Source: a virus (lineage: Duplodnaviria > Heunggongvirae > Uroviricota > Caudoviricetes). From it: DNA of 64,000 bases. The notes below the pieces were generated by a model. That model was not told where the DNA came from. It saw only the letters and a list, made by a program, of their open reading frames with translations, and ran no database searches. The position numbers were made by a program, and so were the translations under genes. Position 1 is the stretch's first letter. The number at the start of each line of letters is the position of its first letter. Location of the stretch: the IMG/VR virus record IMGVR_UViG_3300044551_000118; one strand, given 5' to 3'. Below are positions 8,230-62,701 of the stretch, one piece after another.

Positions 8230-9399
8230 ATGACTGATCAACATATGCCGCCGCTGCTCCACGCGCTGGACGGAGCGGACTTCGCCAACCCCTGGATGTG
8301 GGCCGTGCTCTCGCTCGTGCTCGTGTGCTATCTCCTCGCCGCCCACGCTTGCGAGAGCACGGCAGGCAGGGTCTTCTTCGCGCTCCTCGCGCTGCCGGCC
8401 GCATGGCTGGGCTTCTGCGCCCTGGACTTCGCCTTCGCCATCTTCACGCCGAGCGGGCAGAGCGTGAACTTCTTCGCCCGCATCATCGACTGGCCGTTTC
8501 GGCTCATCGTCGGCATCGGGCTCTTCATTCTCACGCTCATGCCGCCGTGGCTCAAGAGCGAGGAGAAGAACATCTCCGCCCCCGCGAAGAAGACGCCGGC
8601 GAAAGCGGGAGGGCTGGCCTCTCTCGCCCGGCGCTACGGCATCGCCAAGGCCGCGCCCGGCGAGAGAGCCGTGCAGGGCTTCAAGTGCGTCGACCACGAT
8701 GCGGGCGGCGAGGCCACGGCGCTCTATGGCAGCTCGCAGTGGATAAATCTGGAGGACGAGCGCAGGGCGGGCCGTCTCTACGGCACTCCGGGCGTGGGTC
8801 TGGAGTCCTCTGGATTCGGCTCCGGCTCGATAGGCTCGGGCCGCCGGGGCGAGGAGACGCTCGCCTGCATGATAGCCGCAAGCCATCTCAACGTCATCGC
8901 GTTCTACTCGCTGTATGGCCGTGATGCGGCCGGCAGCCGCACGGATGCCGACATCGACTGCGTGCTGCTCGGCGCCGACCTGCAGGGCCATGCGCGCGCA
9001 TGGTTCGTGGATGCGAAGAACTACAAGGGAGGCTCCGACACGCGCTACGTGGATGCGGGCAACGGCTCGCTGGCCCGCATCTCCAAGTCCCTTCACGCCT
9101 TCGTGTCCGGCTCGAGGGGATCCGTCACGCTGCCCATGAGCGGCAACATGGCGGCGCAGCGCGCCCACTGGGAGGGCGTCCTCAGGTCCCACGTCATCGC
9201 CTCGACGTGGTGCGTGTGCATGACGCCCACCGGCGAGCACGGAGCGCCTGACGCGTCCGGCGTCGCATGGCCGGGGAGCGTCCCCGCATGGAGTGTGGAG
9301 CAGCTCGCGTCGAGCATCAGGAGCGCGGCGCTCGCGCCGGTCGACTCCATACGGGCGGCGGACATCAATCTGTTCCGGTCGGCCCTGAAAGGCGCATAG
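8230..9399 (+). CDS. membrane-anchored NERD-like (nuclease-related domain) protein
   Basis: Three N-terminal TM helices. The C-terminal region 'GRRGEETLACMIAAS...DIDCVLLGADLQGHARAWFVDAKNYKG' matches the NERD pattern (G..GE, D.D, E.K). The start codon lies inside the palindrome CATGGACGC-atatcg-GCGTCCATG. Confidence 0.5.
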   Translation: MTDQHMPPLLHALDGADFANPWMWAVLSLVLVCYLLAAHACESTAGRVFFALLALPAAWLGFCALDFAFAIFTPSGQSVNFFARIIDWPFRLIVGIGLFILTLMPPWLKSEEKNISAPAKKTPAKAGGLASLARRYGIAKAAPGERAVQGFKCVDHDAGGEATALYGSSQWINLEDERRAGRLYGTPGVGLESSGFGSGSIGSGRRGEETLACMIAASHLNVIAFYSLYGRDAAGSRTDADIDCVLLGADLQGHARAWFVDAKNYKGGSDTRYVDAGNGSLARISKSLHAFVSGSRGSVTLPMSGNMAAQRAHWEGVLRSHVIASTWCVCMTPTGEHGAPDASGVAWPGSVPAWSVEQLASSIRSAALAPVDSIRAADINLFRSALKGA

Positions 9400-18532: not shown

Positions 18533-18547
18533 GAGGGACGGCTATGC

Positions 18548-31563: not shown

Positions 31564-33441
31564 CTAACCCTGTTCCATGATTCGCGCCAGCTCAGAGGCA
31601 TCCATGAGCTGGGCCCCGGTGCCCATATCCTTTGGTTTTGGCTTCGTGCCCGTGCCGTCATCTCCGCCGCTCGGCGCGGGCGTAGGGGCCTCTCCGCCGA
31701 ACTCGGCTTTTGAATCCTCCCACCCCTCCTTGAGCAGCCGAAGGATGCTGTCGGTGGCGAGCGCCTTCTGCAGCGGCAGATCGATGCGCTGGGTGAGGAA
31801 GTTCATGAAGGCGCCGTCGATCTGGTCATCAGGCCCGTGCTTGCGCAATGTGTCAAGGTACTTGCCCCTGTCCACGTCGTCCGGCAATCCCAGCAGGTCG
31901 ACCAGGCGGCGTCCGAAGACCTCTACATCCGACATGCCGTCGCGACCGGCCCAGTAGGTCTTGTATACACGCCCGCGCTGCCCCGAGAGCTCGGCTCGCC
32001 CCACGCCCTTCGACACGCCGCCGTCCCTGATGTAGACGGGAATCTCCGGCATGTCATGCTGATCATGGAAGGTCGCCAGGATGGCGGAGCTGGGGTTCGC
32101 GCCCTGCACCATGCGGTGTCCGAAGAGATCGCGGGTCGTGGGCCCCAGCCCGGAGCGGTCATTCACGGTCTGCGAGGCCAGGATGAGGATGTACCCCTGC
32201 GCTCGGGCGGTGCGCAGAATGCGCAGGGCCTTCATCTTGATGTCGTACTCGGCCTGCCCGTTGTATTGCTGCTCGAAGATGGCGGGGGGCACCTTCTCCG
32301 GATTCGGGATTGATTTGACCATGATGGCGGCATCGACGAGCGAGGAGAACTCATCCACGACCACGACGTGCCGCGGGTATTTGGCCTTGGCCCAGTCGGG
32401 GATGGAGTACCAGTTTTGCCAAGCATTCTCCTTCCACACCTTCGCGCGTTCGCCATGCTCCACATCCTCGATGAGGAGATTGAGGACCCCTGCTGACTGC
32501 TGCACGGACTCGCAGCCCCAGTGCCCCGGCGTGACCCACGGGCGCAGCCAGTAGTAGTCGGTGGCTTTGTTCGACAGGTCGATGATGGAGAGGAGCGGCT
32601 TCTGCGCGACCAATCCCGCGAGGATGTTGTTGATCGCCACGCTCTTGCCGGAGCCTCCCTCGCCGCCGATCAGCAGGAACGAGGATTCCTTCCAGTCGAC
32701 GGACGCGGTTTCGTAGTCGAGCCCGCCCGCCTTGGGCAGCAGCACGCCGAACGGGGTTCTGGAGAACTGCTCTGGAGAGCCGAGTCCGTCAAGGGGGAAG
32801 GGGTGCACGGGAAGAAATGTCGGCGGCTCGCCGGGATGGATGTCGATCGTGCCCTCTCGCGCGTCCGCATCGAAGTACCAGCCGGGCCGGCCTATCTGCA
32901 GGCAGGCGGACTGCACCTTGGAATCGTATTTGTCGGACGTGTAGATGATCGAGGAGTCGAGCGCGCAGTGCCAGCCGCCGTCCTTCGCCGGCTCGACTTT
33001 CGCCTCCCATGGCTTGAGTCCCATCGCGGCGGTCAAAAACCCCCGCGCGGTCGTTTGCTCGGGGCTCAGCCGCTCGAAGATGGCTTTGCCCTCGTACGGG
33101 CGGAACTCCGTCATCTTGAAGCCCGGCAGCGAGCTCTCGTAGTTCGCCTGCACCTTGGCCGCCGCGCTCGGCGTGCACTGGGACGCCGCGAGCTTGACGA
33201 CCTTGCGGTCTCCGTTGTCCTCCACGGAGGCCACGGAGCGGTCCACCAGCACGGCGACGTGCCGCTCCGCATCGATGTAATCCAACTCCGCGTCGGAGGC
33301 CTCTGGCGTCTCGCGCCTGAATTTGTCGAGCATGCGGTCGAGCAGGGCGCGGTGCGAGGCGTCGCCCACGGGGTCGAAGACGAACGACGCGCCCGCCTTG
33401 TTTTTGATCTTGGATGGGTAGCTGCACTCAAATTTCTGCAT
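31564..33441 (-). CDS. FtsK/SpoIIIE-family DNA translocase (TraB/TraSA-like conjugative dsDNA transfer ATPase)
   Basis: Walker A 'GGEGGSGKS', Walker B 'HVVVVDEF', and the FtsK-type motor-domain blocks. This family drives conjugation of actinomycete ICEs and plasmids. Confidence 0.85.
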   Translation of the reverse strand: MQKFECSYPSKIKNKAGASFVFDPVGDASHRALLDRMLDKFRRETPEASDAELDYIDAERHVAVLVDRSVASVEDNGDRKVVKLAASQCTPSAAAKVQANYESSLPGFKMTEFRPYEGKAIFERLSPEQTTARGFLTAAMGLKPWEAKVEPAKDGGWHCALDSSIIYTSDKYDSKVQSACLQIGRPGWYFDADAREGTIDIHPGEPPTFLPVHPFPLDGLGSPEQFSRTPFGVLLPKAGGLDYETASVDWKESSFLLIGGEGGSGKSVAINNILAGLVAQKPLLSIIDLSNKATDYYWLRPWVTPGHWGCESVQQSAGVLNLLIEDVEHGERAKVWKENAWQNWYSIPDWAKAKYPRHVVVVDEFSSLVDAAIMVKSIPNPEKVPPAIFEQQYNGQAEYDIKMKALRILRTARAQGYILILASQTVNDRSGLGPTTRDLFGHRMVQGANPSSAILATFHDQHDMPEIPVYIRDGGVSKGVGRAELSGQRGRVYKTYWAGRDGMSDVEVFGRRLVDLLGLPDDVDRGKYLDTLRKHGPDDQIDGAFMNFLTQRIDLPLQKALATDSILRLLKEGWEDSKAEFGGEAPTPAPSGGDDGTGTKPKPKDMGTGAQLMDASELARIMEQG

Positions 33442-43149: not shown

Positions 43150-43714
43150 TGCGTATCCAGCGCGCGACGTCAACGTTCTCCATAAAGACGATGGCGGCGG
43201 CAGAAGCCCCTTACTGCTTCGTAACGGACCGGGCCAGCGCCGCGCGCATTGCTTTCCTTCGGGACGCATACGAAACACTGCGCGGCGTCAACGTCGCTGC
43301 GTCGAATGGTTTCAACAGCATTCGGCGCGGAGCGATGGCGGGGAGCAGCCCGATCGATCACCTCGGCAAGCCACGACCCCCGCCAGCGCCGCGCCTTTTC
43401 CTCTTATCGGACGCATAGCGCGTATCGCACGGCGTCAACGTCGCCGCCGCGGATCCTTTGAGACAGTCCGTGGGCGGATCGATGGCGGGGATAGGACGAT
43501 TTAGACAACCTTTTTCGTCTGCTGAAGCCCCGCCAGCGCCGTGCATTTTCCTTATCGGACGCATAGGCATTATCAGAACGCGGCGTCAACGCCGCTGCCC
43601 TGCGGGCTTTACGGGATCATTCACTCGCGGGATTGCAGAACGATGGCGGGCGAGGATGGTCTGATAACCTTCCACCCGATGACCCCGCCAGCGCCGCGCT
43701 CTTCCTCTTTTCAG
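43150..43714. repeat. tandem array of four ~120-150-bp non-coding direct repeats
   Basis: Unit starts near 43150, 43270, 43417 and 43565. Conserved blocks per unit: GCGxCGTCAACG, GATGGCGGG, CCCGCCAGCGCCGCGC and TTTCCTxTTATCGGACGCATA. Confidence 0.6.
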
Positions 43715-44404
43715 AATTCCGGCTCGTCCGGGTCTGCGATGAACGAGCCGCGCACCTCCCTGATGCCCGCCAGCCTCTTCCAGACACCCTCGGGGATGTC
43801 CACTCGCTCGCCGTTCGGCCCGTCCACGCGCTTCACGCCCCAGATGCCCACCAGCGCCGCGTCGTGCAGCGCGTGGGAGAAGTCCGGGCCGCTCACAGGC
43901 AGCGCTCCGGGGATAGCCCAAGCGTTGAACGGGGCATCTAGGGGATCGAGCGTGGGGCGCGGATGCTCGGGGGGCTGGTATCGCTTCGGCGCGACGGCGA
44001 GCAGCGCATGCGCGAACTCGACCGGCATCTCGCGGGCGACGTGCGCGACTGTCTCAAGGGACAGGGCGCGGGCCATGGCCTCGTCGCCGTCCATGCCCCG
44101 GACGTGCAGCGCCGAGGCGAATGCGGCGGCCGTGGCGAACGGCATTCCGTTCAGGCCCAGCGCCCCGTAGCGAGAGCGCAGCCACGACCATGACTCGCCG
44201 TCGTCCTCAGGCACGCGACAGGGAACATCCGGCAGGAACTCGAAGTACGGGCGCCAACTCAGCTCGCCCTCATGCATCGCCGCATCCCGCTCGCGCCCGT
44301 GGCCCGGCTGCTCCGCGCGATGCATGGCGATGGCGGCGTCCGCCGCGCGGAGCAGCCCGTCGTCGGCGGAGGAGAGCGCGAAGCCGTTGAAATCTATGGT
44401 CAGC
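43711..44404 (-). CDS. hypothetical protein
   Basis: Start chosen at MLTIDFNGF (internal Met of the 247-aa ORF). No recognised motif. Confidence 0.4.
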
Positions 44405-44483
44405 ATGGACTGCGATATGCGTCGGAAGACGCCAGCGGCCCGTGCAGGAGACATCCCGCACGGGCCGCTCTGTTCGATGTCTT

Positions 44484-45683
44484 CTAGGCTTCCTGCTCCT
44501 CCATGCTCACGTCGATGTAGCCGTCCTGCGCGTGGTAGTCATGCATCGCATCGACGTCATAGGAGGTGTACTGCTCTCCGGCCTCGCGGCACAGCCGCAT
44601 GGCGCGGCGGGTCTCTTTCGAGGGCACGAGCATATCCGTCTGCGCCCCCGTCAGCTCCTCGCCCGCGTCGTAGCGGCGCTGCACGTCGTCGAAGACGGCC
44701 TGTATCTGCGCATCGGTGGCGGAGCCGCCGAGCTCGAAGACGGCGGCACGACGCGCACGCCCCTCTGGGGAATTGACCCCTCGGACAATCGCATCATGCA
44801 TGCCCGGAGTCGCGTACGCCCTGCCCTTCGGCGGATGGACGGTGATGTGGGCCTGCCAGCCGGTGCCGTAGTCGTCGGTGCGGCAGCTGACCTTGTAATC
44901 CGCCGGTATCTCGCCGCGCCTCTGGAGGGCCTTGATGTCGCGCCGCATGCCTTTGACCCGCTCGGCGGGGGAGAGATGCGAGTCGTAGCGCCCGCCCGTG
45001 AAGGCCGTGCCGCCGGTCTGGCCCACGGTGGTCGTCCCCGGCTTGATGGGGTTGGGGATGCCGGAAAGCTCTCCCTTGATGTAGTGCGCGGCATCGTCCG
45101 CGTTTGTGAAATGCCTGGAATCCGCGTCGTTCCAGTAATCCTTGTCATCCTCGTGCACCTCGACGGAGCACGCCCCGCCCAGATGCTCGACGGCCACCAG
45201 ATGCGTGCCGTCGCCCTTGTCGAAGAAGCGCCTGAAGTCGGTGCCCGCCCGGCGGGAGCCGTCCTCCCTGAGGCCGAGCTCCGCGAAATCATCCGGCGGC
45301 GCTTCGATGGGGCGGGAGCTTCCCCCCAGCTGGACCGCGATGTAGGTCGCCGCCTCGAACGCGGTTGCGAAGTGGTTGGAGTTCACGGCGTTCTGGTAGT
45401 CGTCATCGTCTGCCGTGCGCAGCTCGACATCGCAGCTCCCGTCCGCGTTATCGGTGGCCCACAGCTGCTCGCCGTCTCCCTTGGCGAAGGACCGCCTGAG
45501 CTGGTTGCCGCTATTCCAGACATCCTCCGCTTCGAGGCCATACTCCTCGAAGACGTCCTGCGGCCCCTGTGCTGCGGATGCACCGAGGCTCGGCAGGTCG
45601 CCTGCGCCCGCGTTGCCCTTGCTGTCAAACTCGCCGCCCGTGCTTGCGGGCGATCCTTTCGGTTTCCTTGCCTGATTGCTCAT
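44484..45683 (-). CDS. hypothetical protein carrying the shared N-terminal module (family member 2) and an internal tandem domain duplication
   Basis: N-terminus MSNQARKPKG-[8-aa insert]-EFDSKGNAGAGDLPSL. Two consecutive ~95-aa repeats (FAKGDGEQLWATDNADGSCDVEL...HFATAFEAATYIAVQLGG / FDKGDGTHLVAVEHLGGACSVEV...HFTNADDAAHYIKGELSG). Confidence 0.55.
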   Translation of the reverse strand: MSNQARKPKGSPASTGGEFDSKGNAGAGDLPSLGASAAQGPQDVFEEYGLEAEDVWNSGNQLRRSFAKGDGEQLWATDNADGSCDVELRTADDDDYQNAVNSNHFATAFEAATYIAVQLGGSSRPIEAPPDDFAELGLREDGSRRAGTDFRRFFDKGDGTHLVAVEHLGGACSVEVHEDDKDYWNDADSRHFTNADDAAHYIKGELSGIPNPIKPGTTTVGQTGGTAFTGGRYDSHLSPAERVKGMRRDIKALQRRGEIPADYKVSCRTDDYGTGWQAHITVHPPKGRAYATPGMHDAIVRGVNSPEGRARRAAVFELGGSATDAQIQAVFDDVQRRYDAGEELTGAQTDMLVPSKETRRAMRLCREAGEQYTSYDVDAMHDYHAQDGYIDVSMEEQEA

Positions 45684-45691
45684 GATGCCCT

Positions 45692-45973
45692 CTATGCGAA
45701 CCGGAGCTGGCGATACGGCCCGTACGCCTCGATGAGGCTGGCGGGCACCACGTCCAGACGGGCCAAGCGATTGCGCTCCGATATCCATGTGACATGGGGC
45801 ATCTCCGCTTCGCGGTAGAGGCCGGGCGCCAGATGCTTCGCGTTCCCCTCTTCATGCCGGGCGACGACCAGCTCGGTGCGGTCGCCCTCGGCGAGGTAGA
45901 GGTGTCCGTCCGGAGTGCGGTAGGCGCGCTGGCGGGTGTTGCGGATGAGATAGGGAGTCGGGTAGGTCTTCAT
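45692..45973 (-). CDS. hypothetical small protein immediately upstream of family member 2
   Basis: 93 aa, ending 9 nt before the downstream start. Confidence 0.4.
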   Translation of the reverse strand: MKTYPTPYLIRNTRQRAYRTPDGHLYLAEGDRTELVVARHEEGNAKHLAPGLYREAEMPHVTWISERNRLARLDVVPASLIEAYGPYRQLRFA

Positions 45974-46023
45974 GTCCCGAGGAATGCGTCCTGCAGCAGA
46001 ATCGCTTCGAGCAGGGCAGGCAT

Positions 46024-46256
46024 GCCGTCCTATGGCTTTCCTAAGAGGACCCCCGAAAACCCCCTATATATCCTATTATCCCCCTATAATCCATAGGACG
46101 GTATGTATAGGGGGTTTAATACTTACTCGCAGTAGGGCTCAGGGCGTCCTATGGCCCATAGGACACCGTATGATCCATAGGACGTTTCCGCTGTTTTCGA
46201 AGCCGAAAAGCCGCAAAACGTCCTATGGATCATACGGCGTCCTTTCGCGCGCATGC
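46024..46256 (-). repeat. divergent variant of the structured repeat element (copy 6)
   Basis: Same block order as the inverted 16538-type element, but the GCATATGC/CCGTATGC units are replaced by TCCTATGG/CCATAGGA units. The ...cccccgaaa..., ...gcagtaggg... and ...gttttcg...gaaaa... blocks are retained. Confidence 0.5.
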
Positions 46257-46477
46257 CGCTTTTCGCCGACGCATAACCTGACTTAACCCCCGCGCGAAGC
46301 CTGCCCGAGGCGCCATGTCGTTCCACATCGTTTCTGGCGCCGACGGGCCTTCGCGTGGGGCGCCTCGTATCCGGATAGGGGAAAGCGCGGCAGCTGCCGG
46401 TCCACTGGCCGTACGTTTCCTCGATGAGCTGCGACGCTATTGTCGGCAATCCGTCCCATCCGCGCATAGACATCCAT

Positions 46478-46774
46478 ATGTCTGCAACAAACATCGCCGC
46501 CACCGGATGGCGCGCATTCTGGGCCAACCTTCTCAATCCCGGCACCATGAGCCTTTTCATCGCCGTGGTGCTGTTCATCGTGCTGCTCGGCTTCGTGTTC
46601 CGCAACACCGTCAGCGCCTTCAGTTTTGCGCTCCGCGCCGGGGCCTTCGTGCTCGCCGCATGCATGGTCATCGGCTTCGCCGGCGTGCTGGGCATCACGT
46701 TCAATGGGCTGGCCCCGATAGTCAACTGGCTCCTGGAGATCGTGCACGCCCCGCTCTACATGCCGGAGGCCTGA
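46478..46774 (+). CDS. hypothetical membrane protein
   Basis: Three predicted TM helices. Start chosen at MSATNIA. Confidence 0.4.
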   Translation: MSATNIAATGWRAFWANLLNPGTMSLFIAVVLFIVLLGFVFRNTVSAFSFALRAGAFVLAACMVIGFAGVLGITFNGLAPIVNWLLEIVHAPLYMPEA

Positions 46775-46780
46775 CCCATC

Positions 46781-47779
46781 ATGGCGAATCGCAGAAGCGG
46801 ATCCTCCGGCGGGATCGGATGGTTCATGGGGTTCCTGGGCACCCTGTTCGCGGTGTGCTGCCTGATGGTGGTGCTCGTCTCCTCGGGCATGTGGCGCACC
46901 CTCGTCGAGACGTTCGGCATCGGCGACGGCGGCGCATCCACATCTCAGCTGACGACGCCCGCCCCCGCGCCCACGCGAGAGTCGGGGGCGAAGACGCCCG
47001 CGCAGTGGCTCTCCGAGCTCTTCGGCCAGGCGACGGGAGCGGCTCCCGAGGCGCCCGCTCCGGCCCTGACGGCGAAGCCGGGCGCCATCCCGTCCATGCC
47101 CAAGGTCGCGATTCCCTCCATTCCCGCGCCCTTGGCCCCGGCGAACGGCTGGGGCGGGCATATCGCCGCCTATAACGCGGCGCTGGGGCAGCTCAATGGC
47201 ATCGCGGTCGCCAAGCCTGCGATAGGCGGATACAATCGCGACGCGCAGTTCGGCGGCTGGGCGAACAGCGCCGCCCTGTGCGGCAAGGGCACGACCCGCG
47301 ACGCCATATTGAAGCGTGATCTGATAGGGGCGACCTCGGACAAGGACTGCCAGGTGACGCTGGGGCTGCTCCACGACCCGTACACGGGCGCGGACATCCC
47401 CTTCAAGCGCGGCACCGGCACTAGCGCCGCCGTGCAGATAGATCATGTCGTCGCCCTGCTCGACGCCTACGGCTCGGGGGCGCGCAGCTGGTCCCAGGCC
47501 AAGCGAGTGCAGTACGCGAACGATCCCGACGTCCTTCTCGCCGCCGACGGGCCGGCGAACATGTCCAAGGGCGCAGGCCTCGACTTCAACGGCACGGCCC
47601 AGTACCGCGCCCAAGGCACGGTCGCGCCCGATGTGTGGATGCCGGACAACAAGGCATATAGGTGCGATTATATGACCAAGCGCGTGAATATTAAAGCCAA
47701 GTACGGCCTGACGATGACGGCGCGCGAGAAGCAGCAGACAGTGCAATACATCGCGGCATGCGCCGCAGGGAAGAACTGA
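46781..47779 (+). CDS. membrane-anchored DUF1524/HNH-like (His-Me finger) nuclease-domain protein
   Basis: N-terminal TM, then a Pro/Ala linker. C-terminal 'VQIDHVVALLDAYGSGA...DPDVLLAADGPANMSKGAG' matches the GmrSD-C/DUF1524 nuclease signature. Confidence 0.55.
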   Translation: MANRRSGSSGGIGWFMGFLGTLFAVCCLMVVLVSSGMWRTLVETFGIGDGGASTSQLTTPAPAPTRESGAKTPAQWLSELFGQATGAAPEAPAPALTAKPGAIPSMPKVAIPSIPAPLAPANGWGGHIAAYNAALGQLNGIAVAKPAIGGYNRDAQFGGWANSAALCGKGTTRDAILKRDLIGATSDKDCQVTLGLLHDPYTGADIPFKRGTGTSAAVQIDHVVALLDAYGSGARSWSQAKRVQYANDPDVLLAADGPANMSKGAGLDFNGTAQYRAQGTVAPDVWMPDNKAYRCDYMTKRVNIKAKYGLTMTAREKQQTVQYIAACAAGKN

Positions 47780-47786
47780 GGAATCC

Positions 47787-48179
47787 TTGGCATCACTCAT
47801 CGCGCAGTGCAATCAGGCCCTTGAGGCCGCCGGCTGGCAGCCGAAGGACAACAGGGATTACTTCACGAAGTGGCATGGAAGGATGGTGCGCGTGCTCATC
47901 ATCGCGGCGTGGGCCGAGGACAGGCACTACGGCGAGCTCATCATCCGGCGCGCGGAGTGCGAATCCTCCGCCCGGCCCGACCAGATGCGGCACATGGCCG
48001 CGTTCGCAGACACTGAGGCGATTCATTTAGGCGAGTGCGAAGGGAGTGCGGATGCGCTGACGAAGCTCCTGACCGGCCTCGACTACTGGTCGGAGCAGAA
48101 TCCGTTCCATGACTCCGCAGAGAAGAGGAATGCCGATATGGCGCTGTTCCGAAGGGGAAGCGCTGCAAGAAAAGGATAG
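47787..48179 (+). CDS. hypothetical protein
   Basis: 130 aa with natural composition. Confidence 0.45.
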   Translation: MASLIAQCNQALEAAGWQPKDNRDYFTKWHGRMVRVLIIAAWAEDRHYGELIIRRAECESSARPDQMRHMAAFADTEAIHLGECEGSADALTKLLTGLDYWSEQNPFHDSAEKRNADMALFRRGSAARKG

Positions 48180-48267
48180 AAAGAGCGGAGAGCCGCTGCC
48201 GGGCCAAGTATGAGCATGCGCTTAATGTTTGTGTAGCAGCTCTCCGCTCGTCATCCTTCATGCGTCC
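48179..48267. repeat. ~90-bp hairpin element, right-flank copy (R1) of the Doc-like module
   Basis: gaaagagcggagagccgctgccgg...gcagctctccgctcgtcatccttcatgcgtcc. Related to 49533..49624, with a compensatory stem change. Confidence 0.45.
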
Positions 48268-48273
48268 GTCATC

Positions 48274-48999
48274 TCAGGGCCGAATGATGGCATGCTCCCT
48301 GAGCCACCCCGCAAGCTCCCGATCGTCGTCACTCCCGTAGTAGCGCAGCAGCATGCCGCGCACGCTCGTGTCCATTTCGGACTGAGGAATGGAGAGCACG
48401 CCCGCGCGTTCTTTGATGAGCAGATGATTGGCGAGCATGATGGCGGTGCGCTTGTTGCCGTCCGTGAACCACTGTCCCCGGCATGTCTGGCAGAACAGAG
48501 ATATGCCGCGATCAACAGGGTCGGGCACATATTCCAGATTGCCTAGGCGCATCTGGATACCCTCCAGCGACGGCGGCATCGGCTTCCATGACGTGCCCGA
48601 GATGCGCACGTCCTCCCGGCGCATGGCGCCTGGATTCGTCGTCAATCCGCCTGCTCCCAGCGTGCGGTTGTACGCGCAGGCGGTGAGCCAGTCGGCGGGC
48701 TCCTCCTCCACTGTGTCGAAGAGCTGCTGCCATGCGTGCTTGATGTTGTTGACGGTCATCACCTTGCTGGCCTGCATGGTGTGCGGCGTCACGCCCTCGA
48801 AAATCTGTTTGGTCTCCGGGAACGTGATGCCCGGCACTTCGATCCCTGCCGTTGTCCACACCAAGTCAATGACCTTGCGCTTGGCGAGTTCGATGCATGG
48901 ATTGCCCGTCTGCGATGCGGCAGGCAGCTCCGGCAGGTCGTTCGCCCCTGCGTTGGGGTCGAAATCGAATTTGCCATCAGGCCGTCTCGGCTGCGTCAT
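48274..48999 (-). CDS. Doc/Fic-family protein with shared N-terminal module (family member 3); catalytic His replaced by Gln
   Basis: N-terminus MTQPRRPDGKFDFDPNAGANDLPEL. Fido motif region 'QWFTDGNKRTAIMLANHLL' matches the Doc signature HxFx(D/N)(A/G)NKR except for Q in place of H. Confidence 0.65.
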   Translation of the reverse strand: MTQPRRPDGKFDFDPNAGANDLPELPAASQTGNPCIELAKRKVIDLVWTTAGIEVPGITFPETKQIFEGVTPHTMQASKVMTVNNIKHAWQQLFDTVEEEPADWLTACAYNRTLGAGGLTTNPGAMRREDVRISGTSWKPMPPSLEGIQMRLGNLEYVPDPVDRGISLFCQTCRGQWFTDGNKRTAIMLANHLLIKERAGVLSIPQSEMDTSVRGMLLRYYGSDDDRELAGWLREHAIIRP

Positions 49000-49523
49000 G
49001 CCGCCATCCTCTCCTTCAGGGGGATAATGATGTTCCCGTGCGCATACTCGCGCAAGGCGGCCTCATCGGGAAGCAGGGACAGATAGCGCTCCCGGTCATT
49101 CGCGGGCACGACCCATACGCCCTCGCCGCTCTGCATCGCCGCATGATTGGCGAGCAGGCCGCCCAGAACCGGGCTGTCATGCAGAACGCTTGCGATATGG
49201 ATGGCATCCCCTTCGAGAGGCACCGCAGGGAGCTTGATTCCGAGAAGTGCGGCATATCGTTTCGCAGCGTCGGCAAGCGACTCTTCATGGCAATCCGCGG
49301 CATATGAGATGCATGATGCAAGAGAGAACACCAGTGCCACATCGCCGACCGGCATGCCCTCGCTCGCCCATCCTGACGCGACGATGCCCGAGACCTGCGT
49401 GAAGCCGATCGACGGCGAGGCGAGGCAGGCCAGCCCGAAGGCCATGTCCTCCGCGCTGGAAAGGAGGAGCCGCTGGATGTCTGTGATCTGCATGCCACTC
49501 ATTCTAGCCGCCGTTCGTTTCAT
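48996..49523 (-). CDS. hypothetical protein, upstream partner of the Doc-like gene
   Basis: 175 aa. Its stop overlaps the Doc-like start (ATGA). Confidence 0.45.
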   Translation of the reverse strand: MKRTAARMSGMQITDIQRLLLSSAEDMAFGLACLASPSIGFTQVSGIVASGWASEGMPVGDVALVFSLASCISYAADCHEESLADAAKRYAALLGIKLPAVPLEGDAIHIASVLHDSPVLGGLLANHAAMQSGEGVWVVPANDRERYLSLLPDEAALREYAHGNIIIPLKERMAA

Positions 49524-49532
49524 ACCGCGATG

Positions 49533-49624
49533 AGAAAAGAGCGAAGAGCCGCTGCCGGTCGTTTTTTTGGGCGTGCGTGTCGATTCTGGGCTATGGCTCT
49601 TCGCTCGTCACCCTTCATGCGTCC
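49533..49624. repeat. ~90-bp hairpin element, left-flank copy (R2) of the Doc-like module
   Basis: gaaaagagcgaagagccgctgccgg...ggctcttcgctcgtcacccttcatgcgtcc. The stem AGAGCGAAGAGCC/GGCTCTTCGCTCG covaries with R1 (G-to-A change compensated by C-to-T). Confidence 0.45.
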
Positions 49625-49675
49625 CATCTTTCTTGACGCATATTCCATCTCAACCCAATAAAGGAGAGAAGTTTT

Positions 49676-50281
49676 ATGAAAACCAAGAAAACGCTCTGGA
49701 TCACCCTCGGCTCCATCGGAGCGGTGGTCGTCCTGCTCGTCATCTCGCTCATCGGCTCCTATAATTCGATGGCAAGCTCAAAGAACGACGTAGAGAATGC
49801 ATGGAGCCAGGTCGAGGTGAGCTACCAGCGCCGCGCCGACCTCATCCCCAATCTCGTGAAGGTCGCCCAGCAGGCATCCGTGCGCGAGCAGGATATCCTC
49901 ACCGCAGCCCTGAACGCCCGCTCCAAGGCCCTGAGCGCCAACGTCGCGCCCGGAGACGCCAATGCCCTTGCCCAGTCGCAGGCCCCTGTGGACAGCGCCC
50001 TGAGCCGCCTTCTGGCGCTCAATGAGTCGTATCCCGACTTGAAGAGCAACCGGAACTGGGAGGATCTGCAATCCCAGCTGGAGGGCACGGAGAATCGAGT
50101 GGCGGTATCCCGATCGGACTACAACGACGCGGTGCGCGGCTACAACGACCGCATCGTGCGCTTCCCCGGCAACGCGCTCGCCGGGATGTTCGGCTTTGAG
50201 AAGGTCGGATACTTCGCCGCCCAGCAGGGTGCGCAGGATGCCCCGTCCATCATGTTCGACAATCCGAGCGCGACCAAGTGA
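49676..50281 (+). CDS. lemA: LemA-family protein
   Basis: N-terminal TM and the conserved LemA core (NAWSQVEVSYQRRADLIPNLV...RYNDAV). Confidence 0.8.
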   Translation: MKTKKTLWITLGSIGAVVVLLVISLIGSYNSMASSKNDVENAWSQVEVSYQRRADLIPNLVKVAQQASVREQDILTAALNARSKALSANVAPGDANALAQSQAPVDSALSRLLALNESYPDLKSNRNWEDLQSQLEGTENRVAVSRSDYNDAVRGYNDRIVRFPGNALAGMFGFEKVGYFAAQQGAQDAPSIMFDNPSATK

Positions 50282-51042
50282 GCCGCGCTCTTCCCAGGCG
50301 GCTGATCGCCCTTGCGCTCGCCCTGCTCTCGCTCATCGCACTGGCCGCGTGCGGCGCGATCGCGGACCCGCAGGCCATTCCCAAGGCCTCCACGCTCATG
50401 CGCCCGGTGGTCGACATGACCGGCACGCTCTCGGACTCCGACATCGATGCGATATCCAAGGCCGCGGACAACAATGCGAAGAATCACACGTCCCCGCAGG
50501 TGGCGGTGCTCATGGTCGGCTCGCTGCCCGGCGGCGACACCGGGGAGCAGGCATCCCTCAAGGCCGCCCGAGCGTGGGGGATAGGCGGCAAGGGCATGAA
50601 GAACGGCGTGCTGTTCTATATCGCCAAGGACGACCACGAGATGCGGCTGGAGGTCGCGGACGGCGTGGGCGACCGCCTCACCGACCTGGAGTCCGACCGC
50701 ATCCTGGACGACCATGTGAAGCCGCTGTTCAAAAAGGACAGGTACGCCGAGGGGATCGAGACGGGGGTGAAGCTCGTGCGCGCCGAGATAGGCGGCAGGC
50801 CGGGGACGACGCACGTTGGGAGTGGGCGGAAGAGCGCCGACGCTGCGGACAAGGCGAAGGCGCCCAACATCTTCGTCGGCATACTCTCCTTCGTCCTGCT
50901 GTTCGCGCTGCTCTTCTTCATCCTGCCGTTCATCCTGCTCTTCGGCGGCTCGTCGTCAAGCTCCTCCTCGTCATCCTCCAGTGGCTCGTCGTTCGGCGGA
51001 GGCGGCGGCTTCTCGGGCGGCGGAGCATCGTCGGGCTGGTGA
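50278..51042 (+). CDS. TPM-domain (TLP18.3/Psb32/MOLO-1 phosphatase-like) protein with Gly/Ser-rich tail
   Basis: GTG start overlapping the LemA stop. 'VVDMTGTLSDSDIDAISKA...VAVLMVGSL...GVLFYIAKDDHEMRLEVADGV' matches the TPM domain. LemA-TPM gene pairs are a conserved association. Confidence 0.75.
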   Translation: MSRALPRRLIALALALLSLIALAACGAIADPQAIPKASTLMRPVVDMTGTLSDSDIDAISKAADNNAKNHTSPQVAVLMVGSLPGGDTGEQASLKAARAWGIGGKGMKNGVLFYIAKDDHEMRLEVADGVGDRLTDLESDRILDDHVKPLFKKDRYAEGIETGVKLVRAEIGGRPGTTHVGSGRKSADAADKAKAPNIFVGILSFVLLFALLFFILPFILLFGGSSSSSSSSSSSGSSFGGGGGFSGGGASSGW

Positions 51043-51107
51043 GTCCGAATAACACGAAAAGACCGACGCCGCAGATACCTCTATCTGCGGCGTCGGTCTT
51101 TTTTATG

Positions 51108-51878
51108 TCAGCCTAGAAGACGAAGTCTCGGACTGCTTTCGCAACCGTCTGCGCGATGAGCCCCCCCCTCGTCGCGGGCCGCGCTCTTGCGCATCTCGAT
51201 CATGACCGATGCCAGTCCGTGCTTCGGGTCATCGAGATTGTTGGGGACGATGGACCCCTTGAAGACCTCATTGAGACCCACGCCCAGCCCGAGGAATTCC
51301 AGTTGCTCGCCGAGCATACTCGCCAGCTCCATGCCCCGCGCGTCGCCGTTGTGCCCGAGGCATACCTGCGGGCGTCCATCGTCCGCGTGCAGCTCATAGG
51401 GCCACGGCTCGTCCGAGTAGGTGTGCACGTCGAGCAGAACGCACTGGCCGAACTGGGCGATCATGCGCTGGGCGACATGGGTCAGCATCGCATGGTAGGG
51501 CCAGTAGACCTCGGCCATGCGGTCGCGCACTTCCAGATCGTCCGGCTCCTGACCGGGCCTGTAGATGGGATCGCCGTTCTCGTCGCGCGTGTAGACGACG
51601 CCCATACCGACGGCGTTCATCTCCTCGCGCTCGTCGGGATACCGTTCGACGTCGCAATATACCCGACTGACATCGGTGCCTAGCAGCTGGCCCATGGCGC
51701 GCTGCGCGATGGTCTCGCCCACGACATCGGCGTAAGAGTCCGCGAGATTGCAGATGGTCCGCTGCGTGCGCCTGACATCCGCCAGTCGCATGGAGTCGAA
51801 ATCACGAGCGAGGCCCGCATGCGGCACGGAGACCAGCGCCGGGAAGTCGCCGAAGGAGTTCAGTGAAAGAGTCTGCAT
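51108..51878 (-). CDS. N-formylglutamate amidohydrolase-family (FGase-like) protein
   Basis: 256-aa C-terminal portion of a longer ORF. Start chosen at MQTLSLNSF. Conserved blocks VSVPHAG..., DVERYPDE..., DVHTYSDE... resemble the FGase/zinc-hydrolase family. Confidence 0.5.
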   Translation of the reverse strand: MQTLSLNSFGDFPALVSVPHAGLARDFDSMRLADVRRTQRTICNLADSYADVVGETIAQRAMGQLLGTDVSRVYCDVERYPDEREEMNAVGMGVVYTRDENGDPIYRPGQEPDDLEVRDRMAEVYWPYHAMLTHVAQRMIAQFGQCVLLDVHTYSDEPWPYELHADDGRPQVCLGHNGDARGMELASMLGEQLEFLGLGVGLNEVFKGSIVPNNLDDPKHGLASVMIEMRKSAARDEGGAHRADGCESSPRLRLLG

Positions 51879-51978
51879 GCGATGTTGTATGCGTCCGGAA
51901 AGAAGGAGAAACAGCCGCCGCGCGCGCCTGGGATATACGGATTGGATGAGGGCGGCTGTATAACTTCTCTTATGCGTC

Positions 51979-52659
51979 CTAGTCTTCCGCGACCAGCCTT
52001 GCCGCTTCGACCGCATCGTCGTACTCAACATACGGCGGATTCTCCGGCGCATTATCTGCGACCGCCATCGCCACCACGTCGGGTCGTCCCAGCCTCTCAT
52101 AATTCCACCCGTCAGGGGCGTATTCGTCATTCCACGCCACGCGGGCGACAGGCCTGAAGCCGTGGCGACCATAGAGGCTCGGCAGACCCCCTCGGATGTC
52201 GTAGCAGTCGAGCCTTCTCGCGCCCCTCTCCACGGCCTTCTCGACCAGTGCGTCGCCGCCGTGCTCGCCTTTGTACGAGAACACGGATACCAGCTCGTCG
52301 CCATCCGCGATGGCGAAGCCGGTGCGCCCGTCCTCGTCCAGATAGAGGTCGTCGCGCAGATAGTCGTCCGCGTCGTGCACATCCACCGCCGAAGCCATCG
52401 GATTGTTCTCCTTGAGCGCCGCGATGCGATCGCGAAACAATTCGGCGTTCTCCGGCGTGGCGTCCAGCTTGAAGAAGAGCTTCGGCGATGCGCTGGGAGC
52501 CGCGCCGTCCAGACTCACGCCGCCTACAGGCTCGCACGGGACCTTGTTTCCGCCGATGCTCAGGTACGCCTTGCGCGGGTTCAGGCTCGGGAGGTCGGAT
52601 GCCCCCGCGTTCGGGTCGAAATCGAATTGCCCGTTGGGCTTCCTAGGCTGATTGGTCAT
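51979..52659 (-). CDS. GNAT-family N-acetyltransferase with shared N-terminal module (family member 4)
   Basis: N-terminus MTNQPRKPNGQFDFDPNAGASDLPSL. C-terminal region shows a GNAT fold pattern (..VSVFSY...GDALVEKAVERGARRLDCYD...LYGRHGFRPV). Confidence 0.6.
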   Translation of the reverse strand: MTNQPRKPNGQFDFDPNAGASDLPSLNPRKAYLSIGGNKVPCEPVGGVSLDGAAPSASPKLFFKLDATPENAELFRDRIAALKENNPMASAVDVHDADDYLRDDLYLDEDGRTGFAIADGDELVSVFSYKGEHGGDALVEKAVERGARRLDCYDIRGGLPSLYGRHGFRPVARVAWNDEYAPDGWNYERLGRPDVVAMAVADNAPENPPYVEYDDAVEAARLVAED

Positions 52660-52691: not shown

Positions 52692-52919
52692 CTACTCGAA
52701 GTGGACGACCTGCCAGATGCCGAGCGGCTCCATGCTCTCCGCCGTCACGATGGCCTCCGTCTCGCTCTCACAGTCGAGCGCTGCGGTGCGGATGCCATAT
52801 TCGGCGTCCTCGCGGCTCAGCGTATCGGGGTACTGGGCCATGATCTCCTCGACCCGCTTGGCGACCGCTTTTTCGATGGCGGGCGTGCTTTCTTTGAGTC
52901 CCACTCGGTTCGTCATATT
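52692..52919 (-). CDS. hypothetical small acidic protein upstream of the GNAT gene
   Basis: 75 aa from MTNRVGLK; the ORF may extend to 53030. Ends 33 nt before the GNAT start. Confidence 0.35.
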   Translation of the reverse strand, partial: NMTNRVGLKESTPAIEKAVAKRVEEIMAQYPDTLSREDAEYGIRTAALDCESETEAIVTAESMEPLGIWQVVHFE

Positions 52920-53313
52920 CGTTCCTTTCGTTTCCGCATCATATGCGTCCTGCAATCCAAGGCCGTTGCCTGGCTCCAGCCTATCATTTTCGCTCTGGAC
53001 GCATTCCCGGTATGCTAACCCGTAGAACATAGGGAAAGATTACGAAAAGGAGTGCAGAAAGCGTGGCAAAGCCCTCCCAGCCGTGCGCGAGGCGTTCGGA
53101 GAGCCTGGTCTCGAATTCCTCGAAGCCGGTCGAGTATGCGACGTCGATGTCGCGGCAGACAAGGCCGCCCACGGGCCGCAGGGCCGCCAGCCGAAGGGCG
53201 CTCCCGGAGGAATCGGCGGACGGTTCGCCTAGCGTCGCTCTGAGCGCCTAGCTGCGGCTGATGCTGCAATGATGCCCGGCGTTGCCATCAGGCCTGGAGT
53301 TTGCACCCGTCGC

Positions 53314-53676
53314 ATGACAGAGTATGTGCATCCAGCGCATAGCGCGAATCCCATGAGACTCTTCCTGTGCTCCGCCCAGCCGTACATCGCCAGCATGTTC
53401 CTGCTCGCGATCGTCGTCTACATACTGCACGTCCAGCCGCATCATCGCTCAGCGCCCGCGTGGCTGAACGCCGCCATGGCGCTCTCGGCGCTGGGCATGG
53501 GCTCCTGCGAGCTGACCATCGATCTCACGGGCTATCCCATCGCCATCCCCGCGGCGCTGGCATTCTTCGCGCTGTCCGCCGTCATGGGACGGATGGCGTT
53601 TCGTCAGCTCTTCGGGCCGAGCGCCGCGTCCAGCCGCGCCGTGAAGCCGTCCAGCGACTTCGCGTCCCGCTCGTAG
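53314..53676 (+). CDS. hypothetical membrane protein
   Basis: Three predicted TM helices. Start uncertain (53269 or 53314). Confidence 0.3.
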   Translation: MTEYVHPAHSANPMRLFLCSAQPYIASMFLLAIVVYILHVQPHHRSAPAWLNAAMALSALGMGSCELTIDLTGYPIAIPAALAFFALSAVMGRMAFRQLFGPSAASSRAVKPSSDFASRS

Positions 53677-55622: not shown

Positions 55623-55699
55623 GGTTGGGCCTATGCGTCGGCATGTGACGCATATGGGACGAAATGAACGATTTCTCGATTTCCATGATTTTTGCGGCG

Positions 55700-61681: not shown

Positions 61682-62701
61682 TTAGTCGGACGAATCCGAT
61701 GAAGCGTCCGTATCCGTGGATGCGTCCAAGGGCGCGGGCGATGCCGAATCGGATGCGCCTTTCGGCTTGGCGGGCGCCGGACCCGACCAGCGGTTCGCGT
61801 AGTCCTTGATGCCCGGCCCCGTGCCCGCAGGCCCCCATGCCAGGATCTTCGGGGTGCCGTCGGGGTCGCGCAGAATCACGTCGTAGTCGAAGCGGGCGCC
61901 CTGCGAAGTGTCATCCGGGGCCTTGGCGGTGATGGTCACCGAGACGACGGCGGTATCCGAGCTGGACTTGTCGCGCGCCACCTTGCCGCGATCCAAGTAT
62001 GCGCCGTTGTTCACTGTCACGCTGTCCGCGCCGCCCAGGGACAGCGGCATGTAGGAGGCCCCCGGGTTCGGGTCCGCCACGATGGTGGTCAGCAGCGATC
62101 TGTCCGAGCCGAACAGGGCATTGCCCCAGTTGGTCAGCAGCCGGGAGGCGGCGCCCGGAGGCGCGTACTGCTTGATGGAGCTCGGCCAGGAGTGGCCCGC
62201 CCCCGCGCCGGATGCGACGGACACGGGAGCCGAGAGCGGCGTGGCGGCGGGGTTGCCGATCGGCTGCCCGCCCGGGCCGATGACCGCATCCACCGTCCAC
62301 CAGCGCCCGTCCTGGCCCTGCACGGTCATCGTGTGGCGCATGGCCGTGAACGCCTTGTTGGACGTATCTCCGGACACCTGCAGCGCCTGGGCGCCGTTCC
62401 AGCTCACGATGGATGCGGGGCCTCCCAGCGGGCTGCCGGAGCCCAGCCACGACTCGACCTGCTGGTAGGCGGACTGCTTGCCAGACGGATTGAAATCGGG
62501 TTTGATGGGCGGCTTGGGCGGGGGCATGGAGCCGATCGTCATGATCAGATAGACGAGCAGCCCCAGGATGACGTACCAGACGATCCGGTACCACCGGGTG
62601 CGGCCCGCCACCAATTTCACGAACTCCTTGTCGGGGTCCGGCTCCTTCTTGACCGCCTCGGCCCAGACGTCCGCTTCCTTCTTCTTCGCTTTGAGTGCCA
62701 T
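61682..62701 (-). CDS. hypothetical membrane-anchored protein
   Basis: N-terminal Lys-rich segment, one TM helix (IVWYVILGLLVYLIMTIGS), then a ~270-aa exported domain and a Ser/Asp-rich tail. Confidence 0.5.
   Translation of the reverse strand: MALKAKKKEADVWAEAVKKEPDPDKEFVKLVAGRTRWYRIVWYVILGLLVYLIMTIGSMPPPKPPIKPDFNPSGKQSAYQQVESWLGSGSPLGGPASIVSWNGAQALQVSGDTSNKAFTAMRHTMTVQGQDGRWWTVDAVIGPGGQPIGNPAATPLSAPVSVASGAGAGHSWPSSIKQYAPPGAASRLLTNWGNALFGSDRSLLTTIVADPNPGASYMPLSLGGADSVTVNNGAYLDRGKVARDKSSSDTAVVSVTITAKAPDDTSQGARFDYDVILRDPDGTPKILAWGPAGTGPGIKDYANRWSGPAPAKPKGASDSASPAPLDASTDTDASSDSSD

Follow-up and report, generated by a model that had tools for sequence, protein, structure and literature searches.

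A 64-kb stretch of viral-record DNA (IMG/VR record IMGVR_UViG_3300044551_000118; 64,000 nucleotides in full, hereafter the window) contains four open reading frames (ORFs), here designated P1 to P4, that open with one and the same leader module of 25–33 amino acids (aa) and are dissimilar beyond it. P1 (9409..9966, plus strand) joins a short form of this leader (aa 1–27, nt 9409–9489) to a 158-aa tail of unknown family, and P2 (44484..45683, minus strand) carries a long form with a GSPASTGG insert (aa 1–33, nt 45585–45683). The short form recurs in P3 (48274..48999, minus strand; aa 1–25, nt 48925–48999), where it precedes a Fic/Doc-like domain, and in P4 (51979..52659, minus strand; aa 1–26, nt 52582–52659), where it precedes a GNAT-fold acetyltransferase-like domain (aa ~30–226). 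In a four-way alignment, 14 of the 16 invariant columns fell within P1 residues 1–27 (i.e., M1, Q5, R7, P9, G11, F13, D14, N18, A19, G20, D23, L24, P25, and L27) and no credible alignment was obtained downstream, in agreement with the first-pass annotation of this DNA, which had reported the four ORFs, their positions and N-termini, and a shared module followed by unrelated sequence.

A degenerate DNA pattern for the leader (GGN4TTYGAYN9AAYGCNGGN7GAYCTNCCN4CT, encoding G-x-F-D-x3-N-A-G-x2-D-L-P-x-L) matched the window four times, only at P1 to P4, against an expectation of 0.00 from 100 dinucleotide-preserving shuffles. No fifth intact copy was found among all six-frame ORFs of the window (hmmsearch with the --max option), the only further trace being a fragment at ~53180–53232 (plus strand). 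When 22 aligned leader codons were compared, identity amounted to 0.77, 0.80, and 0.51 at codon positions 1, 2, and 3, respectively, and pairs of leaders had 14–18 identical residues, 6–8 of which (i.e., 35–57%) were encoded by different codons. Since codon position 3 is far less identical than positions 1 and 2, it is the peptide that was conserved rather than DNA that was recently copied, and the leader peptide is, by this codon measure, under purifying selection.

The leader consensus reads M-x(1-3)-Q-[PA]-R-K-P-x-G-(optional sPxsxGG)-[QERK]-[FY]-D-x3-N-A-G-x2-D-L-P-x-L, with MSNQPRKPNGQ[FY]DFDPNAGxGDLPxL as the short form and MSNQARKP[KA]GSPASTGG[EQ][FY]Dxx[GP]NAGxGDLPxL as the long form with insert. 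In every carrier it is directly followed by a flexible stretch rich in Gly, Ala, Pro, and Ser, and in both AlphaFold2 (AF2) models it was of low confidence (pLDDT ~46–50 for P4 residues 1–29 and ~30 for the P2 leader). The leader is predicted from these models to be intrinsically disordered, and a leader with a flexible linker is what would be expected of a tethered linear motif. As surmised in the first-pass annotation, it does not correspond to a known signal: no family match was found in Pfam, NCBIfam, PHROGs, or PADLOC, and no described N-terminal signal of this kind was found in the literature. Features of Sec, Tat, or lipoprotein signals were likewise absent, the leader being rich in Pro, Gly, Asp, and Asn and having no hydrophobic stretch, no RRxFLK twin-arginine motif, and no lipobox Cys. 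Three other candidates were rejected by eye, i.e., a beta-clamp-binding motif (the Gln and the fifth hydrophobic position vary), an EF-hand-like Ca loop (which breaks down in the long form), and an SSB-tail mimic (which needs a free C-terminus).

The leader-like fragment mentioned above belongs to a small ORF (53083..53232, plus strand; profile match with an iE of 6e-6) that ends in GRQPKGAPGGIGGRFA followed by a stop codon, the latter being in frame with a following membrane-protein ORF of 107–135 aa. A truncated leader, MSNQARKPKGSPASTGGECGFEY followed by a stop codon, was also seen in related locus L010 (9484–9555, minus strand), just upstream of an intact leader gene. Both are possibly scars of decay or recombination, and the ORF at 53083..53232 may be the remains of a leader gene that has decayed.

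An exhaustive HMMER search with a 30-position leader profile against 1.84 billion protein cluster representatives (E <= 1e-3) yielded 15 matches, 14 of which were true carriers (84–420 aa; P1 itself, as P0001, among them), while P0014, which has internal FDGQTNAGGGDL repeats, was a false positive. The leader starts at residue 1 in 12 of the 14 carriers, at residue 6 in P0011, and at residue 14 in P0012, the protein call of which includes an upstream start. The contigs of these carriers were fetched and scanned with a 17-sequence leader HMM, and leader genes turned out to be clustered, with six lying within 5.5 kb in locus L006, three in L013, and two plus the truncated remnant in L010. With the leader removed, the tails (of the carriers and of those in the fetched loci) formed 12 clusters unconnected by BLAST (1e-3), and the leader peptide was kept across loci otherwise without shared sequence. 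Recognisable tails were Fic-like, GNAT, Gln_amidase (Pfam PF15644, “Papain fold toxin 1, glutamine deamidase”, found on a leader-tagged protein with an E-value of 7e-7), and five pentapeptide-repeat proteins, and one leader-tagged tail had a weak C-terminal HTH_23 match below the Pfam cut-off. Moreover, leader forms swap on one tail family, with the long form on P2 and the short form on P0002 and P0003. The leader genes of L006 and L013 lie back to back without partner ORFs (six in L006, a tandem pair in L013). In L006 (2241–7657), the leader-tagged genes encode five different pentapeptide-repeat proteins and a homologue of a glutamine-deamidase toxin, and they lie beside an IS605-type TnpB gene.

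The first-pass annotation had proposed a constant leader with a variable payload, and this was borne out by the 14 carriers and 12 BLAST-unrelated tails; the leader HMM search and the tabulation of C-terminal domains and neighbours that it had suggested yielded, on the short contigs available, no constant neighbour. The leader proved to be neither a known signal nor part of one fixed larger domain, since GNAT and Fic-like tails also occur leaderless or on other N-termini, which marks it as a separable module. As judged from these sequence comparisons, the leader is a constant module placed by recombination before many unrelated effector-type domains, and it is rare and confined to one family of Bifidobacterium-type mobile elements. 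Its DNA pattern had 0 matches in 2.9 million viral contigs, in the genome collection, and in the metagenome collection, and the strict leader, as an exact degenerate DNA pattern, was not found in 185,579 GTDB species representatives. Searches with tblastn against PLSDB plasmids and INPHARED phages gave chance-level matches or none, with no match in 50,697 phage genomes. A 45-aa leader profile returned nothing at E <= 10 in a word-indexed search of 5.8 billion proteins, a database too large for so short a profile. Around the carriers, NERD-like and 231-aa families each recur only twice near leader genes, and orphan methylases or restriction-type nucleases flank carriers in L010, L013, L020, and L026.

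The fold calls made in the first-pass annotation for P4 (GNAT) and P3 (Doc/Fic) were both right. The AF2 model of P4, obtained from a 39-sequence alignment (pLDDT 88, pTM 0.81), is globular over residues 30–226, and all top Foldseek matches in the PDB were GNAT acetyltransferases (probability 1.0, TM 0.45–0.55), with no toxin of a toxin-antitoxin (TA) system among them. Neither P4 nor its upstream partner had a Pfam, NCBIfam, or PADLOC match or resembled a ribbon-helix-helix (RHH)/DUF1778 antitoxin, and no sequence link of P4 to the GNAT toxins (TacT, AtaT, KacT, ItaT) was found via Pfam, NCBIfam, or phmmer against the PDB (where the sequence search gave chance matches to MS2 coat protein only). 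Immediately downstream of P4 lies an N-formylglutamate amidohydrolase-family gene (Pfam FGase; 51108..51878, minus strand). GNAT-type and FGase genes are also adjacent on Rhodococcus linear plasmids, in a different order (L015, 4746–6678; L016, 4740–6672), and the adjacency in both settings suggests a functional pair, e.g., acyl-transfer and deacylase.

Homologues of P4 in phages are annotated as acetyltransferases, and the N-termini found on P4 homologues comprise the exact leader, a related form (MNQPREPKGAPGGTGGRF...GLPGL), a degenerate form, an unrelated ~190-aa domain, or no extension. The degenerate form (RRREPKG[IL]PxGGRF...SDL) is common on the GNAT tail in human-gut Bifidobacterium, as in P0049, a named B. 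adolescentis protein with 253 member sequences; among 51 GTDB-representative loci with the GNAT tail, a leader was present only in a Bifidobacterium metagenome-assembled genome (MAG), in this degenerate form. The ~190-aa N-terminal domain (“MCKPKPGPRCTPH...”) occurs on the GNAT tail in Rhodococcus, Nocardia, and Microbacterium. This “MCKPKPGPRC” domain (carriers P0060, P0065, P0069, and P0073; L032, L033, and L041 around 7533–8783) shows the pattern MC[KR]P.PGPRC.PH, a coiled coil, and then YDSTPGGQ.EL, is without a Pfam match, and may represent a further header domain not yet described; two copies that are identical are labelled as Gammaproteobacteria and Dehalococcoidia MAGs, probably through mis-binning. 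In the Microbacterium phages Barnstormer and UtzChips, the GNAT-type domain makes up the C-terminal ~130 aa of a minor capsid protein encoded right after the portal (~400 aa, Pfam VG15, possibly of the MuF type), so the same payload is there carried by a virion-delivery module. In a Sutterella MAG (L052, 4845–10895), it is found inside a 2017-aa ORF without Pfam match that may be a polyvalent protein.

P3 matches Pfam Fic (PF02661) with 32.1 bits (gathering cut-off 24, E 2.2e-7) and phrog_11900 with an E-value of 5e-21, and TIGR01550 DOC_P1 with 19.7 bits only (cut-off 38.65). Its motif QWFTDGNKRTA carries Gln176 where the catalytic His of HxFx(D/E)GN(G/K)R belongs. This Gln is invariant in 21 P3-family members, with F, G, N, K, and R conserved, and the Gln-for-His family, in which FxDGNKRTA is kept, spans Bifidobacterium, Oscillospiraceae, Clostridia, and phrog_11900; the substitution suggests that the P3 family may be non-catalytic or of different chemistry. 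Homologues of the Fic-like tail are mostly leaderless, one example being the “Fic family protein” recorded at NCBI for Bifidobacterium sp. BRDM6; in a few, the N-terminus is a degenerate leader-like sequence ending DDL.P, and Firmicutes relatives have another N-terminal domain.

P1 and P2 had no match in Pfam, NCBIfam, PHROGs, or PADLOC. The internal duplication that had been noticed earlier in the 370-aa domain of P2 resolves into two repeat units of ~85 aa (internal alignment; ~45303–45557 and 45042–45293, minus strand) that are 42% identical (E = 7e-20). The ~170-aa C-terminal domain of P2 is common to P0002 and P0003, which have one or zero repeat units. Its AF2 model was weak (overall pLDDT 61, with 75–92 in the C-terminal domain) and nothing significant was found in Foldseek, the best match, to a contact-dependent inhibition (CDI) immunity protein, being rejected (E 0.02, rmsd 13 Å). 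Directly downstream of P2 lies a gene for a 231-aa protein of unknown function (43711..44406, minus strand), and a homologue of this 207–231-aa family was seen at L006 7892–8515, two genes upstream of the leader-deamidase gene; the L006 and window loci sharing it are otherwise unrelated. P1 is preceded by a membrane-anchored, NERD-like ORF of 389 aa (8230..9399, plus strand; faint NERD match) that ends 9 nt before the P1 ATG. A NERD-like relative at L017 10668–11606 is convergent with a leader-GNAT gene in B. adolescentis-type contigs, its similarity to the window ORF being weak (24% identity over 304 aa, E 0.008). Immediately downstream of P1 and convergent to it are two paralogous genes of unknown function (9963–10469 and 10543–10980, both minus strand) that share LPPLAWAI...PVPI..., one of them preceded by a GCATAG-N9-ATG site (10531–10548).

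The three clustered leader genes had been described as each lying directly behind a small unrelated ORF. Their positions hold, all on the minus strand: a 93-aa ORF without Pfam or NCBIfam match and of unknown function (45692..45973) is separated from P2 by 8 nt, a 175-aa ORF (48996..49523; 168 aa according to gene callers, which start it at 49502) overlaps P3 by 4 nt (ATGA), and an ORF without family match and of unknown function lies 32 nt before P4. The latter had been given as 52692..52919, an ORF that is present, and gene callers extend its start to 53030 (52692..53030, 112 aa), which makes 52919 internal. P1 likewise follows a gene at close range, i.e., the 389-aa NERD-like ORF 9 nt away. 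The partner of P3 is not unrelated to it: it had no Pfam or NCBIfam match and no Phd/YefM- or VbhA-type antitoxin was recognised in it, and profile comparison identified it as a truncated, degenerate Fic-like paralogue without the FxDGNKR loop (hhalign probability 97.2%, E 4.7e-11), with a syntenic counterpart in L026 (2815–3351). It may act on P3 as a pseudo-enzyme partner or inhibitor. None of the partner ORFs had a match in Pfam, NCBIfam, PHROGs, or PADLOC, and BLAST showed no similarity between those of different loci, the pseudo-Fic kinship being visible only by profile comparison. A leaderless P3 relative follows a gene with a weak RHH match, and a canonical VbhA+Fic pair is separately present in locus L023. 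Since the P3 partner is a Fic-like paralogue and the leaderless relative has another neighbour, partners go with the tail and not with the leader.

The leader genes also have upstream sequence in common. The 20 nt immediately upstream of the P1 and P4 ATGs are identical, because of the heptamer CGCATAG. This box occurs 19 times in the window (9.5 ± 3.1 expected; 0 of 100 shuffles reached 19), and the arrangement GCATAG-N9-ATG nine times versus 0.41 expected. Ten of the 19 boxes are located 8–10 nt before the ATG of a real ORF, versus 9% for random positions. The ten boxed ORFs are P1 (box at 9393–9399, plus strand), P2 (45692–45698, minus strand, with the TAG stop of the 45692..45973 ORF falling within it), P4 (52669–52675, minus strand), an FtsK-like ATPase (33451–33457, minus strand), a lysozyme (7099–7105, minus strand), an NlpC/P60 protein (55631–55637, minus strand), a 339-aa membrane protein (61682–62701; box at 62711–62717, minus strand) that heads a long minus-strand array, two small membrane proteins, and the gene at 17558–18532, the further start-proximal boxes being those at 18542–18548, 46463–46469, and 53336–53342. 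In the related loci L010, L013, L017, L019, L020, and L026, CGCATAG again lies ahead of gene starts, and it was not start-proximal in the pMP7017 region, the Rhodococcus plasmids, or the chromosomal locus L023; on this distribution, a start-proximal CGCATAG is specific to this element family. With T at –12 and A at –11 from the A of the ATG, it could act as a –10-like element of leaderless mRNAs; it may also be an operator. Whatever its mechanism, P1, P2, and P4 share through this box one expression class with putative transfer genes. Inverted arrangements were seen as well, i.e., the pair CTATGCG-N9-CGCATAG at 62711–62733 of the window and the palindrome CTATGCG-N3-CGCATAG between two divergent leader genes of L006.

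The window as a whole (66% GC, no tRNA genes) looks like an integrated mobile element of an actinobacterium, the nearest named relatives being Bifidobacterium. A tyrosine recombinase is located at its left edge, and related contigs all end about the same place, at its right edge. Its genes encode two orphan methylases, a flotillin-like protein, a phage-tail-type lysozyme, a PIF1-type helicase, a Phage_VG64-domain protein, a SpaA-type protein, a Listeria-Bacteroides-repeat surface protein, and CHAP and NlpC/P60 hydrolases, and P2, P3, and P4 lie within the long co-directional minus-strand array (~62.7 to 39 kb), together with hydrolases and several membrane proteins. Actinobacterial integrative and conjugative elements use two types of DNA translocation, one based on a type IV secretion system (T4SS) and one of the FtsK type (PMC3218068). 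Only two P-loop ATPases were found in the window, i.e., the PIF1 helicase and the FtsK/SpoIIIE-like, single-domain protein (31564..33441, minus strand; weak Pfam match, Walker A at 32664). Homologues of the latter annotated as FtsK, 26–34% identical, are present on Bifidobacterium megaplasmids (including B. breve pMP7017) and large Micrococcales plasmids. The protein is a candidate motor for coupling or translocation in the element. With pMP7017, the window further has in common the lysozyme and the gene next to it. As for related loci, L010 encodes a 987-aa FtsK-like protein and L026 carries an LPD28 gene.

Three surface proteins (35503–38001, plus strand; 56946–57968 and 58043–59485, minus strand) end in LAxTG-type anchors (LASTG, LATTG, LAQTG), with sorting signal, hydrophobic stretch, and basic residues. 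The 832-aa LAxTG protein has an Ala/Gln/Lys-rich coiled coil around a central globular domain, and this coiled coil explains the AT skew of 0.35 there. Contig L002 is without the insert at ~56–60.5 kb that carries two of the LAxTG proteins. The C-terminal half of a 335-aa ORF without Pfam match (30498–31505, plus strand) resembles, by eye, the C-terminal region of IS110-family transposases (…QLWALCGLHVIEGRAAKRTKG…).

As to what the leader does, we tentatively favour the reading that it might be an addressing tag coupling element-encoded effectors to one common partner, most plausibly the transfer apparatus, and we rate this as somewhat short of probable. The leader would then be a short disordered N-terminal “header” of Bifidobacterium-type integrative, probably conjugative, elements, which recombination would place before many unrelated effector domains and which would dock all carriers onto that one partner. 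The partner could be the element's own transfer apparatus, e.g., the FtsK-like ATPase, in which case the effectors might reach the recipient cell along with DNA or be shown at the mating junction, and might aid establishment (anti-restriction, host takeover) or antagonise non-kin cells. Support for such a tag comes from the modularity, N-terminal position, and disorder of the leader, the clustering of its genes, their effector/toxin-type payloads, and the shared box, as well as from the situation of the leader genes in an array with CHAP, NlpC/P60, and membrane proteins and near orphan methylases, and from the occurrence of the GNAT payload elsewhere on delivery-type carriers (the phage minor capsid protein and the 2017-aa ORF). 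Conjugation systems do transfer proteins (PMC8406263; PMC5675462).

Several points weigh against this reading. Neither VirB4 nor a recognisable relaxase was found in the 64-kb window, so that the conjugative ability of the element is itself something that we infer, and in the B. adolescentis-type locus L017 an 852-aa protein has a VirB4-like AAA_10 match that is sub-threshold. The leader was not found on proven conjugative Bifidobacterium megaplasmids or on any PLSDB plasmid; on the contigs at hand, which are short, leader genes were found to have no constant companion family; and some payloads, such as the His-less Fic-like domain, may not be enzymes. The T4SS protein signals that we know of are C-terminal or internal, not N-terminal. 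It is because of this, and because we infer both recognition and export, that our confidence stays at this tentative level. A sharper version, which we regard as doubtful, holds that the leader would be the first sequence-defined N-terminal signal for protein export by actinobacterial conjugation, with the FtsK-like motor of the element recognising it and injecting shuffled effectors into recipient cells before or with the DNA. The effectors in question, a proposal that seems equally doubtful to us, would be DNA-mimic pentapeptide proteins, a pseudo-Fic, a GNAT, and a deamidase toxin.

Export might also play no part. The leader could be an intracellular docking motif or degron that binds a cytoplasmic protease adaptor, chaperone, or master inhibitor, an explanation that we consider unlikely; the corollary that effectors are held short-lived or inactive until needed, in the producing or the newly invaded cell, we likewise judge unlikely. 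A short disordered leader with a flexible linker is typical of linear motifs and degrons, the carriers share a promoter-like box and behave as one regulon, and payloads this varied would all require common control. Moreover, secretion machinery cannot be tied to the leader. Against a degron or docking motif, the same payloads ride elsewhere on delivery carriers (a phage minor capsid protein, a giant ORF) and not on regulatory tags, and no candidate binding partner is conserved near the leader. To our knowledge, the leader is also unlike known ClpX or Lon N-terminal tags.

The first-pass annotation had considered a family of toxin-partner modules, and the carriers might indeed be ordinary type II TA pairs (Phd-Doc-like, GNAT-RHH-like) with a common N-terminal extension for antitoxin binding or autoregulation. 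Small ORFs do lie directly upstream of P2, P3, and P4, Fic and GNAT folds are used by TA toxins, and the leaderless P3 relative lies behind a gene with a weak RHH match. This reading did not hold up, and we find it distinctly improbable: the partners are mutually different, are not of the Phd, RHH, or DUF1778 families, and are not conserved with the leader; that of P3 is a truncated Fic-like paralogue, with the catalytic His replaced by Gln family-wide; and the six leader genes of L006 and the tandem pair of L013 have no partners. Furthermore, the partners go with the tails, P2 and P4 have their own start-proximal boxes, P4 has no sequence link to TacT/AtaT, and PADLOC and NCBIfam gave no toxin match other than a weak and generic resemblance to Fic/Doc.

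A packaging signal that loads proteins into a phage capsid, a gene-transfer-agent-like particle, or a vesicle would have the same architecture, with a short N-terminal leader, variable cargo, and several carriers per genome, and the GNAT payload inside a phage minor capsid protein and the phage-flavoured genes of the window (Phage_VG64, phage-tail-type lysozyme, integrase) fit it. We nevertheless give it little credence, as neither the window nor any leader locus was found to encode a capsid, portal, terminase, tail, sheath, or baseplate component, the 2.9 million viral contigs (leader pattern) and the 50,697 phage genomes (tblastn) gave no match, and the surface adhesins, sortase-type anchors, and hydrolases point to conjugation. 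Finally, a nucleotide-level by-product, i.e., a shared initiation or regulatory region or a gene-conversion tract with a functionless peptide, could account for the 20 identical nt upstream of the P1 and P4 ATGs and for the CGCATAG box that accompanies many leaders, but is scarcely credible, given that the box is located ahead of the ATG and is found before non-leader genes too, that third codon positions are 51% identical versus 77–80% at the others with different codons behind 35–57% of identical residues, and that the peptide is kept in loci without other common sequence.

The leader can serve as a search handle by which to enumerate all effectors of this element family, and the effector repertoires of gut Bifidobacterium mobile elements are, as far as we know, essentially uncharted. 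It is also a portable tag, the function of which is open to a simple reporter-fusion transfer assay, and the CGCATAG box offers a way to define the regulon of the element. If the leader is indeed a transfer tag, it would be a tool for protein delivery between Bifidobacterium-like cells; if it is a degron or inhibitor-docking motif instead, it would be a single handle by which a mobile element controls a dozen unrelated effectors.

Among known systems, the closest parallels are with polymorphic toxins, reportedly described by Zhang et al. in 2012, and with polyvalent proteins. For the latter, N-terminal header domains have been proposed to serve conjugative delivery, and GNATs were noted on T4SS-type elements (Iyer et al. 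2017; PMC5512222). As in those systems, a constant N-terminal module precedes shuffled C-terminal effector or toxin domains, the tails also occur on other N-termini, the payloads include Gln_amidase and GNAT, and the genes lie on mobile elements beside methylases and nucleases. In contrast, the leader is a disordered peptide of 26–33 aa rather than a folded trafficking domain (LXG, MuF, ArdC-N, PAAR, RHS), and each effector is a separate small protein instead of part of one giant polypeptide. Nor was a processing peptidase seen or a secretion system linked here, the ties to a delivery pathway being contextual, through the CGCATAG box in common with the FtsK-like ATPase and hydrolases and through an element-type backbone. 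Immunity genes of polymorphic toxins are usually downstream, whereas the small ORFs lie upstream of P2–P4; downstream neighbours include the FGase gene after P4, and no small ORFs separate the pentapeptide carriers of L006. MuF-family polymorphic toxins are delivery carriers of temperate phages (Jamet et al. 2017; PMC5576092), and the P4-type GNAT domain similarly rides on a phage minor capsid protein after the portal, although the window itself is without virion genes.

Bartonella VbhT/VbhA and the Bep effectors illustrate how a TA-like module becomes a delivered effector: a Fic toxin encoded on a conjugative element, behind a small partner gene, is fused to a T4SS signal that is separable and is recognised by the conjugative system (Harms et al. 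2017; PMC5675462). The window likewise has a Fic-domain protein with a small upstream partner on a mobile element. The BID signal of Bartonella is however a folded, C-terminal domain of ~100 aa with a charged tail, whereas the leader is N-terminal, short, and disordered; and VbhA is an inhibitor helix of ~60 aa, whereas the P3 partner is a 175-aa pseudo-Fic and P3 is without the catalytic His. Doc (of Phd-Doc) and the GNAT toxins TacT, AtaT, and KacT resemble the present proteins in their Fic/Doc-like and GNAT folds and in a small gene upstream, and differ in that neither the catalytic His, nor antitoxin families, nor sequence kinship with GNAT toxins were found here, and in that those families carry no such leader.

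Short N-terminal leaders with variable cargo include the capsid-targeting sequence (CTS) of phage T4, the packing signals of PVC/extracellular contractile injection systems (eCIS), type III secretion system (T3SS) signals, and double-glycine, NHLP, and Nif11 leaders. The present leader shares with the T4 CTS, eCIS, T3SS, and double-glycine leaders that one short N-terminal sequence sits on several unrelated cargo proteins per genome. Unlike theirs, its surroundings in the window comprise no prohead protease, capsid, contractile sheath, T3SS, or C39-peptidase ABC transporter, and its consensus is not of the LSxxELxxIxGG type of double-glycine, NHLP, and Nif11 leaders. Its conservation in sequence also sets the leader apart from T3SS signals, which are not so conserved. 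We know of no sequence-defined protein-substrate signal for Gram-positive or actinobacterial conjugation systems. This kind of system, i.e., modular effectors behind a constant N-terminal module, is already known, this particular leader is in no library searched, and a short, sequence-conserved N-terminal tag would be unusual on a Gram-positive mobile element.

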